Part shown: positions 1-13,985 of the stretch, piece after piece
Layout: each line of letters starts with the position of its first letter
Numbering within the stretch: the stretch's first letter is position 1
Source of the DNA: Aquificaceae bacterium
Lineage (GTDB): Bacteria > Aquificota > Aquificia > Aquificales > Aquificaceae
Length of the DNA stretch: 13,985 bases
Direction: 5' to 3'
NCBI GenBank assembly: GCA_037924335.1
Contig: JAXSMZ010000032.1
Location: 1-13,985 of the forward strand
Program-made: the position numbers and the translations under genes
Notes under the pieces: model-generated
Databases searched by the model: none
Told to the model about the DNA's origin: nothing
The model's input: the letters and a program-made list of their open reading frames with translations, nothing else

Positions 1-68
1 ATGACCTCAGAGACGATGTTAGCTTTTTTCTCTGTCATAGGGCATGGGACCTCAATAGCCCTATACAT
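1..68 (-). CDS. 5' end of an unidentified gene (MYRAIEVPCPMTEKKANIVSEV...), truncated by the window edge; possibly TnpB/Cas12-like
   Basis: ATG at 68 on the minus strand, frame open to base 1. A perfect TATAAT lies 6 nt upstream (75-80), the same leaderless layout seen at three well-supported genes in this window. Only 22 codons are visible, so identity is speculative. Confidence 0.5.
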   Translation of the reverse strand, partial: MYRAIEVPCPMTEKKANIVSEV

Positions 69-74
69 AGGAAT

Positions 75-80
75 ATTATA
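75..80 (-). promoter_or_regulatory. -10 box (TATAAT) of a putative leaderless promoter
   Basis: Minus strand reads gcTATAATattcctATG; no Shine-Dalgarno before the ATG at 68. Confidence 0.55.
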
Positions 81-139
81 GCTTTTGTTTGTGAGTTCAT
101 GCGTGTATTGGGTATAAATGTCAATATTTTCAGATACTA

Positions 140-237
140 GTCGCCAAGACCTAATTATGGCAAGTCCTGAAAGAGTTTCTCCTTCAGGACGGAGAGGTCT
201 CTTAAAACCCTCTCAGGAGAGAGCGCAGTCTTGAAAC
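140..237 (-). ncRNA. Putative structured non-coding RNA or IS200/IS605-like end element
   Basis: Minus strand: GTTTCAAGAC (237-228) pairs with GTCTTGGCGAC (150-140). Inside are a 12-bp hairpin GTCCTGAAGGAG-AAA-CTCTTTCAGGAC (190-164) and a second hairpin GAGAGG...CCTCTC (214-192), alternatively CTCTC-TCCT-GAGAG. Most imperfect pairs are G-U on the minus strand but A-C on the plus strand. TATAAA (250-245) lies 7 nt before G237. Strand and function are inferred. Confidence 0.45.
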
Positions 238-255
238 TTATCTTTTTATAATTCA

Positions 256-1035
256 CTATACCTTCCTAAACTCTTCTGGTAACTCTCTTGGTGGAACTCC
301 TATGTACTCTGTCTCTGTTCCCTCATTAAGCCTTTTGGAGAAGGGCTTTTCTATGGTTAATTCTTCATAAACATGAGCAACAAGACCAGGAACTCTCCCT
401 ATGATGAAAAAGCCCTTTCCAAGCCTCCAATCAAAGCCCATCTCAGACGCAATTGCAGCTATAGCACCGTCAACGTTAAGAACAAGTCTCTTCCCCTTTT
501 GCCTTTCTATCTCTTCTGACACAGCCTCCGCAAACTCACAGTGCTTACTATAAAAACCAAGGCTTTTTGCTATATCCATGAGCCTTTTAGTCCTTGGGTC
601 AAAGTCTTTGTAGTACCTGTGGCCATACCCAGGTATGGGTTTTTTAGCCTGCAGGTATTCTGATACTACATCCCCTACGCCTTTCCCGCTTGAGACTCCT
701 TCCTGAATGAACTTCATAGCATCCTCCAAAGCACCCCCATGGGCAGAGCCAAAGGCTAAAACTCCAGCAGCTACCCCAACGTTTAGAAAATTACCACCCG
801 AGGTAACAGCCCTTGCCGCTATGGCAGATGGTGGAGCTATGCCATGGTCTATAATTGAAACAAATATGGCTTCCATCATCTTAGACTCTTTCTCGTTTGG
901 TAGCTCTCCCTTGAGTATAAGATACGTAGCCTGTGCAAAGGAAAGATTTCCTACAAGGTCAAGAAGCCTGTAGCCTCTTATGTAAGTTTCATGTCCCACG
1001 TGCTGGGTTATTCCAGTCCTCCAGATCTTTTCCAT
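256..1035 (-). CDS. ccl: Citryl-CoA lyase (reductive TCA cycle; citrate synthase-like fold)
   Basis: 259-aa stand-alone citrate-synthase-like protein with DHG..PPS, G.AHGGA, IPGYGHR..DPR and LNVDGAIAA motifs. N-terminal WRTGIT...IRGY is typical of citryl-CoA lyases. Start placed at ATG 1035 behind AGGAGG rather than at TTG 1041. Confidence 0.88.
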   Translation of the reverse strand: MEKIWRTGITQHVGHETYIRGYRLLDLVGNLSFAQATYLILKGELPNEKESKMMEAIFVSIIDHGIAPPSAIAARAVTSGGNFLNVGVAAGVLAFGSAHGGALEDAMKFIQEGVSSGKGVGDVVSEYLQAKKPIPGYGHRYYKDFDPRTKRLMDIAKSLGFYSKHCEFAEAVSEEIERQKGKRLVLNVDGAIAAIASEMGFDWRLGKGFFIIGRVPGLVAHVYEELTIEKPFSKRLNEGTETEYIGVPPRELPEEFRKV

Positions 1036-1037
1036 CT

Positions 1038-2366
1038 TCAACCTCCTTTTATAACTTCCTCATTGACCTTAATCTTGGCTTTTCTCAAAAGACTCTCTAT
1101 AAAGTAGTTGACTACAGCATTGGATTTTACGTTCAGTATATCCTTAGACAGCTTTTCCATCTGTTCCTTATCCATCCTTTTTTGCTTCCTTTCTGTTATC
1201 AAAAAAACTCCGTAGCCTTGCTGTAGCTCATAAGGACCAAACACCCTTTCCTTTGATAGCAAAAAACCAATAAGTTGATCCTGACCGACTCTCGCTACGT
1301 TTACAATTTGCTCTGCAGGTGTATCGTTAAAGTTTAGAACCCTAACGTTTTTGACTTCCTTCCTACTTTTAAGCTCTGTGTAAACCCTTTGAGCCTCATC
1401 TTTCAACATTTCTACCCTTTTCCTGTTTACAAGCATATCCTCTATCTGCCCGCTCACCTCTTCAAAGCTTTTTATACCAGCAGGCTCAAGTCTGTAAAGA
1501 TATACAAGGACATAATCCTCACCCTCCTTCGTTAGAGATATTCTGTTTTTATCTGTAAGACGGCTTACCTCGGATAGTAAGGTCCTTGACATTTTCCCTT
1601 CCTCATCTGGGAGGGTGTACTCTTTATAACCGCCAACTTCCTTGCCATTCTTTATATCTTTGTACAACTCTTCTACTTTCAATTTATTCTTCTCTGTCCA
1701 TACCCTTACTATTCTTCTCTGATGGCTCCTGAACATATCTTTGTTTTTCTCATAGAAGCTTAGTATCTCCTCTTTTGTAGGTTTGTAGTTTATACTCTCG
1801 GGCGTTAAGATGTAAAGCTTTCCAGAGAGGAGGGTAGACTGCACCAGCATATTGACCTTCTCTTCCTTTTCTGACATGTAAACACCGTTTGAGATCAGCG
1901 TCAGAAGTTTCTGTACAGTCAACATTTTCCTTATGTATTCCTCGTACTCCTCTGGCGTCAATCCTATCCTGCTTAAAAGCTCCTTGTACTTGGAAAAGCT
2001 AAAAAAACCCTTTTCTTGAAAAGTTGGGTCTGACTTTATTACTTTTACAACCTCATCATCAGAAGCCAAAAAACCTAAGGACTTAGCCTTTTGATAGAGC
2101 AGCTCCTGCACTATGAGGTTTTCAAGCACTTGCTTTTTTATAGTTTCTTCCATCTCTCTGTTCTGTATATTGGAAAACCTAAGCATCTCCCTTCTGTAGT
2201 CCCTCAAGTTTATGCATGATCCGTTCACCTCAGCCACGCATTTTTTACCCACAGAGAGTATATCCCTTGCACTTCCAGCAAAGAAGAGCCATAGGAAAAA
2301 GGCGCCAGATGCCAAAGCGACAATGGCAGCAACCAAGGTTTTATGCTTTTGAAGCAGAACATACAT
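1038..2366 (-). CDS. PpiD/SurA-N-domain membrane-anchored periplasmic folding chaperone
   Basis: N-terminal TM helix, VAEVNGSCI (SurA_N VA.VNG..I motif), helical 'VLENLIVQELLYQKAKSLG..SDDEV..I...P.FQ..G.F....Y' region characteristic of PpiD, and 'EEI..FYEKNK..F'. Start moved to ATG 2366 because TGnTAAAAT lies 8 nt upstream. Confidence 0.78.
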   Translation of the reverse strand: MYVLLQKHKTLVAAIVALASGAFFLWLFFAGSARDILSVGKKCVAEVNGSCINLRDYRREMLRFSNIQNREMEETIKKQVLENLIVQELLYQKAKSLGFLASDDEVVKVIKSDPTFQEKGFFSFSKYKELLSRIGLTPEEYEEYIRKMLTVQKLLTLISNGVYMSEKEEKVNMLVQSTLLSGKLYILTPESINYKPTKEEILSFYEKNKDMFRSHQRRIVRVWTEKNKLKVEELYKDIKNGKEVGGYKEYTLPDEEGKMSRTLLSEVSRLTDKNRISLTKEGEDYVLVYLYRLEPAGIKSFEEVSGQIEDMLVNRKRVEMLKDEAQRVYTELKSRKEVKNVRVLNFNDTPAEQIVNVARVGQDQLIGFLLSKERVFGPYELQQGYGVFLITERKQKRMDKEQMEKLSKDILNVKSNAVVNYFIESLLRKAKIKVNEEVIKGG

Positions 2367-10754: not shown

Positions 10755-11585
10755 ATGAAGGAGTATGTTAGCATTATAATAGCCTATCATGAAGGTAAGA
10801 CTCCAAAGACCCTTAGGGTAAAAAAATCCCACCTAAAAGCCTTTGCGGTTTCTGCTGTGAGCTTCCTCTCTTTATCCATCGCATCCTACACTCTCAACAT
10901 GACTCTACTGTCTGAAAAGGAAAAGCTTAAAGCAGAGGCAGAAAGGCTCCGGATGGAGAGGCATGAAACTTTAGCAGAGAAAGAGAGGTTAAAGCAAGAG
11001 AGGTTAGTTATAAGCAAGAAACTAAAAGCTTTAGAAAGCAAAATGGCAATGGTTGAGGACCATCTCGCAAAAAGAGGGATTATAAGAAAACCCTTGGCAG
11101 TTGGCGGAGCATCTTACAAGTTTGATTATCAGGACTTATCCCGTCTGGATTTCTTAAAAGAACGCAGCGACTATCTTCTGTCCAAAGTAAAGGGTACTCC
11201 CTTAGGATACCCTATCTACGGTAGGATAACATCCCATTTGGGCTGGAGGAAAAACCCATTTGGTAGGGGTTACGAGTTTCATTCGGGTATAGACATAGAA
11301 GCACCTTACGGGAGCAAGGTTGTAGCTACAGCCGATGGAGTGGTTGAGTCTGCCGGCTACTATAGGGACTACGGTAAGGCAGTCATAATCAAACATCCGT
11401 CTGGCTACTATACTCTCTACGGACACCTTTCTAACATATCAGTTGAAGTAGGACAGAATGTAAAGGCAGGTGATGTTATAGGTCGTGTTGGATCTACTGG
11501 AAGGTCTACGGGACCACACCTTCACTATGAAGTGCTTTTTGAGGGAAAGCTAAAAAATCCAATAGACTACTTGGTCTGGAGGTGA
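10755..11585 (+). CDS. M23 family peptidoglycan endopeptidase (TM + coiled coil + LytM domain)
   Basis: HSGID (HxxxD), YGHL, VG.TGRSTGPHLHYEV (HxH) zinc ligands are intact. TM segment at about residues 29-47, followed by an E/K/R-rich coiled coil. Confidence 0.93.
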   Translation: MKEYVSIIIAYHEGKTPKTLRVKKSHLKAFAVSAVSFLSLSIASYTLNMTLLSEKEKLKAEAERLRMERHETLAEKERLKQERLVISKKLKALESKMAMVEDHLAKRGIIRKPLAVGGASYKFDYQDLSRLDFLKERSDYLLSKVKGTPLGYPIYGRITSHLGWRKNPFGRGYEFHSGIDIEAPYGSKVVATADGVVESAGYYRDYGKAVIIKHPSGYYTLYGHLSNISVEVGQNVKAGDVIGRVGSTGRSTGPHLHYEVLFEGKLKNPIDYLVWR

Positions 11586-11588
11586 GGT

Positions 11589-11984
11589 ATGTTTGGAAAA
11601 AAGGAAGAAGTAAAGAGAACAAACCAAGATATTAAAACCCTCATAGGTGTTGGGTGTGTTTTTGAAGGAAATTTGACCACTTCAGAAGGACTAACGAGGA
11701 TAGATGGAGAGATTATTGGAAATGTGAGCGGTAATGGTGGGGTTATCCTTGGAGAGCGTGGAAGTATTAAAGGTAACGTAAGCCTTGAAGAGGTCATAGT
11801 GTACGGTAGAATAGAGGGAGATATAATAGCCAAAAGCGTGGAGCTAAAGTCCGGAAGCAGGGTGGATGGAAACATAAGAGCAGAAGAGCTTTTAATAGAA
11901 AAGGGGGCTGTATACAACGGAGTGTGTAGGATGGATCAGTCTTCCAGCGTGGATATGTCTCCAACGGGAAGTCCAAGCTCCTGA
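11589..11984 (+). CDS. Bactofilin (polymer-forming cytoskeletal protein, CcmA/BacA-like)
   Basis: N-terminal MFGKK membrane-targeting-type peptide, TLIG.G..FEGNL, RIDG.I.GNV, I.G...V.G.I.G.I.A..V.L.....V.GNI....L.IE.GA...G.C.M beta-helix pattern. SD overlaps the M23 stop. Confidence 0.92.
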   Translation: MFGKKEEVKRTNQDIKTLIGVGCVFEGNLTTSEGLTRIDGEIIGNVSGNGGVILGERGSIKGNVSLEEVIVYGRIEGDIIAKSVELKSGSRVDGNIRAEELLIEKGAVYNGVCRMDQSSSVDMSPTGSPSS

Positions 11985-13871: not shown

Positions 13872-13985
13872 ATCAAATAAGTCGGGTAAAAAATTCCTTT
13901 CTTTTAGGAACAAGCTCTACTCATAGTTCCTCATCCCATAGAAAAATATTCCACAGAATGAGGTTTCGCAGGCAAGGGGACTATA

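Follow-up and report, generated by a model that had tools for sequence, protein, structure and literature searches.

The 250 bases behind ccl are very probably layered mobile-element debris, made up of the left end of one transposable element (family A) and an omega-RNA fossil of another (family B). The window, i.e. the whole stretch of DNA analysed here, spans bases 1 to 13,985 of contig C32, which belongs to a 1.53-Mb genome (G000), and the truncated ORF discussed below ends at the contig start. An earlier note on this DNA had tentatively interpreted the region as a structured RNA upstream of a TnpB/Cas12-like gene, belonging to an RNA-guided or IS200/IS605-type system. In our reading the arrangement is an accident of nested insertions and thus does not represent a new RNA-guided system.

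The host gene, named correctly in the earlier note, is ccl (256..1041, minus strand), which encodes citryl-CoA lyase and scores 434 bits with NF004869 (cut-off 212). It is present in 40 of the 41 genomes searched; the closest homologue is 88% identical, and the genes downstream of ccl vary among relatives. An empty site after ccl, for which a search in relatives had been suggested, was found neither among the relatives' loci nor in metagenomes, and no metagenome contig matched a 22-nt pattern of the ccl end, in a searched set from which near-identical genomes may be missing. Since no empty ccl site was found, we infer the order of the insertion events. Farther along the window, at 10755-11984, lies what we take to be an M23-peptidase-like gene followed by a bactofilin-like gene.

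Origin of the fold at 140-237

On the minus strand, 140-237 folds with an energy of -39.1 kcal/mol (z -3.56), which none of 200 shuffles equalled; the plus strand is unremarkable (z -1.54). As had been observed, the region is GC-rich and its flanks are AT-rich (GC 0.49, against 0.29 at 67-139 and 0.11 at 238-255). It had been described as one self-closing fold of ~98 nt. The minus-strand fold is indeed significant, but 140-237 folded alone consists of three side-by-side hairpins, and the helix that closes it, which pairs 233-228 with 145-150 (p ~0.89), is seen only in folds of the longer stretch 120-250. The interval is also composite: it crosses a transposon boundary at 148-150, and its DNA has different origins. 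The fold was rightly said to lack a terminator U-tract, and no terminator-like site was found in window 1-400. The two -10-like hexamers, TATAAA at 250-245 (7 nt before G237) and TATAAT at 80-75 (minus strand, 6 nt before the ATG at 68-66), are present where they had been placed, but promoter calling recognised neither. A transcript over the fold, if there is any, would most likely come from ccl read-through. None of the 8 sequencing runs listed as holders was an RNA run; this has no bearing on expression. A proposed Rfam check of the fold region gave no match: nothing relevant was found in window 1-1500, and 7 loci with family A or B 3' regions returned two tRNAs only.

The middle of the interval, 161..230 (minus strand), is a 70-nt internal fragment of the family B 3'/omega-RNA region, with hairpins at 223-210 and 190-164. 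It is 90-91% identical over 70 nt to family B loci L076 and L153, stops 91 nt short of the family B right end, and lacks the gene, right end and guide of that family. Beyond it comes a 10-nt linker (151..160, minus strand), at which, by the alignment, family B would continue differently, and then the family A left end, with no variable guide. We regard the fragment as omega-RNA-type sequence, its function being suggested by position and covariation, and presumably as an orphaned, non-functional fossil. An unrelated family B element once sat behind ccl; 230-161 is the remaining piece of its omega-RNA region and folds because of this descent.

Of the 28 pairs predicted for the family B 3' region, 15 have double-sided changes among 18 such regions. 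For the hairpin that corresponds to 190-164, 13 distinct homologous versions were extracted and all of them fold (-6.0 to -18.5 kcal/mol), a comparison made on fold energies only; the hairpin is also kept, with new sequence, in gene-less family B elements of ~310 nt. A 13-row alignment of the 161-230 fragment alone, in which an indel of 1 nt in a loop shifts the register, has a double-sided change in only 1 of 11 pairs. Homologues and covariation had been proposed as a check of 140-237; homologues do exist for 161-230, and covariation for the family B region from which it derives, whereas the interval as such is a composite. Likewise, the suggestion that the fold is a TnpB-linked structured RNA holds in so far as 161-230 derives from a covarying omega-RNA, but this RNA belongs to a different family and is truncated at both ends.

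Two other readings of this DNA were rejected. A 33-codon reading of ~256-155 matched a ~500-aa ORF in 7 places in genome G048; the match is to a C-terminal extension of the family B tnpB, and 256-155 was dismissed as a gene of its own. A REP-like repeat was also considered for the fold, and its short matches in other genomes proved to be unrelated coding DNA.

Family B homology stops where a left-end-like string begins (228..250, plus strand), immediately at a GTC (228-230). Scored with a matrix derived from 20 left ends in other genomes, this string reaches 16.7 bits and ranks 25th among 153,848 GT sites, after the known ends and on a par with a few sites apparently due to chance. Although noticed post hoc, it is probably a second, oppositely oriented IS607-type left end, the scar of an inverted insertion. 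The 5' side of the family B fragment would then have been cut off, probably by another IS607-type insertion at GTC. Two related left ends facing opposite ways probably also account for the helix that closes the fold, with 228-250 supplying its 5' arm.

The hairpin at 190-164 might have been co-opted to serve ccl as terminator or stabiliser, or to insulate tnpB, as its 12-bp stem lies 65 nt past the ccl stop and has slightly more Watson-Crick pairs than the closest family B relatives (-18.4 against -17.1 kcal/mol). However, the stem is inherited from family B and lacks a U-tract, and by inspection no such hairpin was seen in the first 170 nt behind ccl at 29 relatives' loci. We consider co-option unlikely and continue to read the hairpin as part of the fossil.

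On another contig of the same genome, C28, a family A remnant has a guide derived from its flank that is nearly matched by window 200..219 (plus strand), with 18 of 20 positions identical after GAGGTC; the chance expectation for a GTC with no more than 2 mismatches over 16 nt is 0.015. The near-match arises because both sequences are family B DNA. The remnant on C28 (G000:C28:8969-9334, L030) lies inside a family B remnant, at GGTC/TCTTA, and the C28 scaffold is itself truncated. No intact family B gene was found in G000, remnants only. With all its B copies decayed, it is conceivable that family A cut family B there in the past.

The truncated gene and the family A element

The 22 codons visible at the window edge (3..68, minus strand) had been read correctly. 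They match the N-terminus of a 493-aa TnpB from genome G017 (12 of 22 residues identical, 18 of 22 similar), the gene being cut by the contig end. The G017 protein passes the NCBIfam model guided_TnpB (105.2, cut-off 100) and has the RuvC residues D, E, D and a zinc ribbon, with motifs at aa 245, 329, 387/406 and 415. This bears out the TnpB-like character proposed for the truncated ORF (68-3, minus strand), which we identify from these matches as the start of tnpB. A Cas12-like effector had been proposed as well, but the G017 copy scores only 59.5 with Cas12f2 (cut-off 450) and sits in a mobile multi-copy element. With the narrow IS607_TnpB model it scores 42.8, far below the cut-off of 350. 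Among 151 genomes of the phylum, relatives of the family A TnpB at E <= 1e-60 occur in 23; a copy on contig C7 of G000 is frameshifted.

Sequence matching window 22-152 recurs at 7 places in G017 and at 2 further places in G000. Four of the G017 copies are full-length and 94-96% alike in DNA over 1.6 kb. By comparison with such copies, window ~147-1 comprises the left end of a multi-copy element without a transposase, together with the start of its tnpB; the element measures ~1.6 kb in relatives. The left end proper (69..147, minus strand) is delimited by flanks that differ among the matching copies. On the minus strand it contains TTGACA (124-119), the end motif GACATTTAT (122-114) and the TATAAT mentioned above, and relative to the copy on contig C2 of G000 it has a 26-nt deletion between 106 and 105. 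By simple count, the motif GACAwwTAT occurs once in the family A left end and twice, inverted, in the right end. Only 79 nt separate the end of the window's element from the tnpB ATG; there is no room for tnpA, and hence this copy is a non-autonomous derivative.

The element adjoins a target GTC (148..150, minus strand), of which TC (149-148) is common to the right end. Family A copies start GTC-TT and finish ACTC between unrelated flanks, with no target duplication (7 G017 elements, by inspection), and neither terminal inverted repeats nor target-site duplications were found in 7 G017 flanks and the C2 junctions. On C2 (L028, G000:C2:69,780-69,951) the left flank occurs twice across an N gap, once with the element and once with host sequence, and the filled and apparently empty junctions have GAGGTC(T) in common. 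They are possibly filled and empty alleles, perhaps from a mixed population; a scaffolding artefact could also explain the repeat.

Metagenome contigs also change at this boundary. Summed over contigs, the depth in four hot-spring metagenomes, other organisms included, is 687, 2239, 865 and 575 in bin 121-160 and 7.8, 16.2, 8.3 and 49.5 in bin 161-200, a 12- to 138-fold fall, with loose contig ends at 152/154. No metagenome contig ran from the ccl flank past base 62.

Derivatives of family A were seen elsewhere. Two (L027:2743-3040 and L117:1995-2291) are ~300 nt long and lack tnpB, with both ends and the hairpins of the 3' RNA retained. A family A 3' remnant at G000:C4:54,570-55,300 is split by another small element and adjoins a remnant of a third family (see below).

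Affiliation of family A with IS607 elements

Intact serine TnpA genes (195-197 aa) lie directly upstream of ~41%-identical TnpB homologues at L134, L135 and L137, and the L134 TnpA scores 183.9 with NF033518 (cut-off 110). Eroded tnpA starts (stubs) precede several other family A homologues, and the same pair of serine TnpA and TnpB is carried by the Thermus plasmid NZ_AP025618. On this linkage the family A lineage is classed as IS607-type, and the IS200/IS605 assignment of the earlier note does not stand.

G000 yielded no IS607 TnpA, and G017 none over the cut-off, despite its four full-length copies; the enzyme that moved the family A copies is thus not located. Taken alone, a tnpB-only element inserted 3' of a short motif with no duplication would also suit an IS1341-like derivative of IS200/IS605, placed 3' of GTC by a Y1 TnpA, with the hairpins as subterminal structures, and G017 does contain Y1 TnpA sequence. 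That sequence is in two separate pieces away from the family A copies, and no Y1 TnpA was found in G000; the screen of the regions upstream of family A copies covered serine TnpA. Against such a derivative also stand the physical link of the clade to serine TnpA, the position of the strong hairpins outside the element boundary, and an end dinucleotide that switches at both ends together. We judge it very unlikely and retain the IS607-type affiliation. ISDra2 and IS608 of the IS200/IS605 group do share with family A an RNA-guided RuvC nuclease and a flank-derived guide, but for family A no Y1 TnpA link was found and the core is matched at both ends. By the tests applied, family A is neither IS200/IS605 nor Cas12f.

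The dinucleotides were compared in 24 distinct elements with both ends readable, from 62 loci examined; three spurious end rows (L021:4828, L029 and L069:1783) were left out of the counts. Left and right ends agree in 22 of the 24, with 14 TC/TC and 8 TA/TA, among which kin are not independent. The two exceptions are L148, which reads TT/TA, and L022, a pattern mis-pick otherwise read as GTC. GG was found at the ends of none of the 24. In a tree of 27 proteins the TC/TA label needs 2 changes, in all 200 bootstrap trees, and the starred branches alone force one. In 21 of 26 right ends (two spurious rows removed) a T follows, so that the crossover could also be CT/AT; neither reading is GG. The target dinucleotide agrees with the ends, as known from one apparent empty site (C2). 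A third, high-copy family in G000 has GTA at 17 of 17 left ends and TA at 20 of 21 right ends.

In the available text of PMC6188088, PMC10711439 and bioRxiv 2023.11.20.567912, IS607 is described as having a GG core and no target duplication, and that of PMC13565253 states that "most" IS607 members end in GG. TAMs reported for IS607-type elements are TGGG, GGG, AGGAG and GAGGG in the portions available of several sources (including PMC10711439 and bioRxiv 2023.11.20.567912). No IS607 group with a TC/TA core was found in the literature searched, although ISfinder and Additional Files 10-11 of PMC10691335 may list such ends. If the core is TC/TA, a GTC/GTA-type TAM is predicted for family A, unlike those reported, as far as the text of these sources is available. 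We somewhat favour the view that family A is an IS607 branch off the GG rule, in which a T[C/A] core switched at both ends at least 2 times and the TAM of TnpB switched with it to a GTC/GTA type.

In other respects family A resembles the IS607 family (IS607, IS1535, ISC1926, ISXfa1 and CboIStron), for which the text available likewise describes a serine TnpA and TnpB, as in the intact relatives of family A, no target duplication, asymmetric ends with short common motifs, for which GACAwwTAT would be a candidate TnpA-binding motif in family A, and a structured 3' RNA. Both have one dinucleotide in the two ends and the target, which in family A is TC/TA (or CT/AT) and in the known members, as described there, GG. 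The window's copy differs in having lost tnpA. The family A TnpB has ~490 aa, against ~390 aa given for the RAGATH-18 group in the text available. The available part of PMC10691335 describes solo TnpB elements moved in trans, stand-alone omega-RNAs and DDE-borne TnpB. The solo elements mobilised in trans likewise carry tnpB alone, are multi-copy and have ends like those of transposase-bearing elements, whereas for family A no matching transposase was found in G000. Family A is best filed as a non-autonomous, non-GG variant of an IS607 OMEGA element.

By analogy with IS607 biology, a transposase-less family A element would be moved in trans by a serine TnpA via a short common core, without target duplication. 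TnpB, with an omega-RNA formed from the element's 3' end and right flank, would cut empty sites and so restore the copy. The core would lie within T-C-T or T-A-T, most simply as TC or TA, giving a GTC/GTA-like TAM. According to the portion available of one IS607 paper, changes of the core reprogram IS607 TnpA only partly. A natural lineage with a TC/TA core and intact transposases makes the co-evolution of core and TAM directly testable. If there is such a non-GG branch, L134, L135 and L137 would be a natural test of TnpA target choice against the TnpB TAM, and the lineage would offer heat-adapted nucleases from hot-spring bacteria with a TAM class absent from the literature searched.

The RNA of family A and the proposed guide

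Family A has its own covarying RNA at the 3' end, as usual for TnpB elements: 14 of 39 predicted pairs have double-sided changes in 13 family A 3' regions. The unusual arrangement assumed in the earlier note, with the RNA upstream of its gene, accordingly disappears. This bears directly on the idea that the downstream TnpB uses 237-140 as a stand-alone scaffold and 139-120 as the guide. The fold is significant and omega-RNA-derived, and trans-acting stand-alone omega-RNAs are known from the available text of PMC10691335. However, 139-120 is inside the family A left end and conserved among copies at different sites, and is consequently left-end DNA and not a guide. Moreover, the fragment comes from another family and its last 91 nt are missing, and the fold is upstream in none of the 7 G017 copies. 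We find a stand-alone scaffold scarcely credible. The locus is a caution that a fold preceding tnpB may be significant and covarying and yet be the fossil of another element.

An assembly chimera between ccl and tnpB, conceivable for a locus at a contig start and at a repeat, can be practically discounted, as single metagenome contigs from three runs, which may include the source sample, bridge 62-433, 106-433 and 123-433 with 0, 1 and 0 differences, respectively.

At its other end (~13,900-13,985) the window carries the right end of the third high-copy IS607-type family, of which G000 has 21 right ends. This is probably the reason why the contig stops there.

Family B and its carriers

Judged by protein matches, family B is a second TnpB family, unrelated to family A. 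Its protein is above the cut-offs of TIGR01765 and TIGR01766 and below that of guided_TnpB, and lacks the C4 zinc ribbon, in which it is like the zinc-finger-less, RIIIr-4-like TnpBs in the available part of PMC10691335. The subclade nearest to the fragment (G048 loci L076, L080, L083, L085-L088 and L213-L214; G098 loci L215-L218; G071 locus L189) combines inverted repeats with exact duplications of 9-10 bp (5 of 7 G048 copies), a likeness to the DDE-associated TnpBs with inverted repeats described there. Family B is assigned to these clades by resemblance, not by a tree, and differs in having ends common to an element that encodes an IS982-like protein.

That element is 1,265 bp long and has the same inverted repeats as the subclade; the match of its protein to IS982 is weak (28.4 against 130). 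In more distant family B members, an IS607 TnpA is upstream in 7 of 30 loci. The comparison suggests that the TnpB-omega-RNA module of family B may have changed carrier. A pairing of TnpB with IS982 was not found in the literature searched, and B-type repeats do not lie beside the IS982-like ORF on contig C2 of G000.

Five gene-less elements of 292-317 nt (L214, L215, L216, L217 and L218) have inverted repeats of the B type and a promoter-like 5' end, and their scaffold still folds although its sequence is rewritten; 2 of the 5 have exact 10-bp duplications. They are candidate stand-alone omega-RNAs. Genome G098 contains 117 matches to the B-type repeat.
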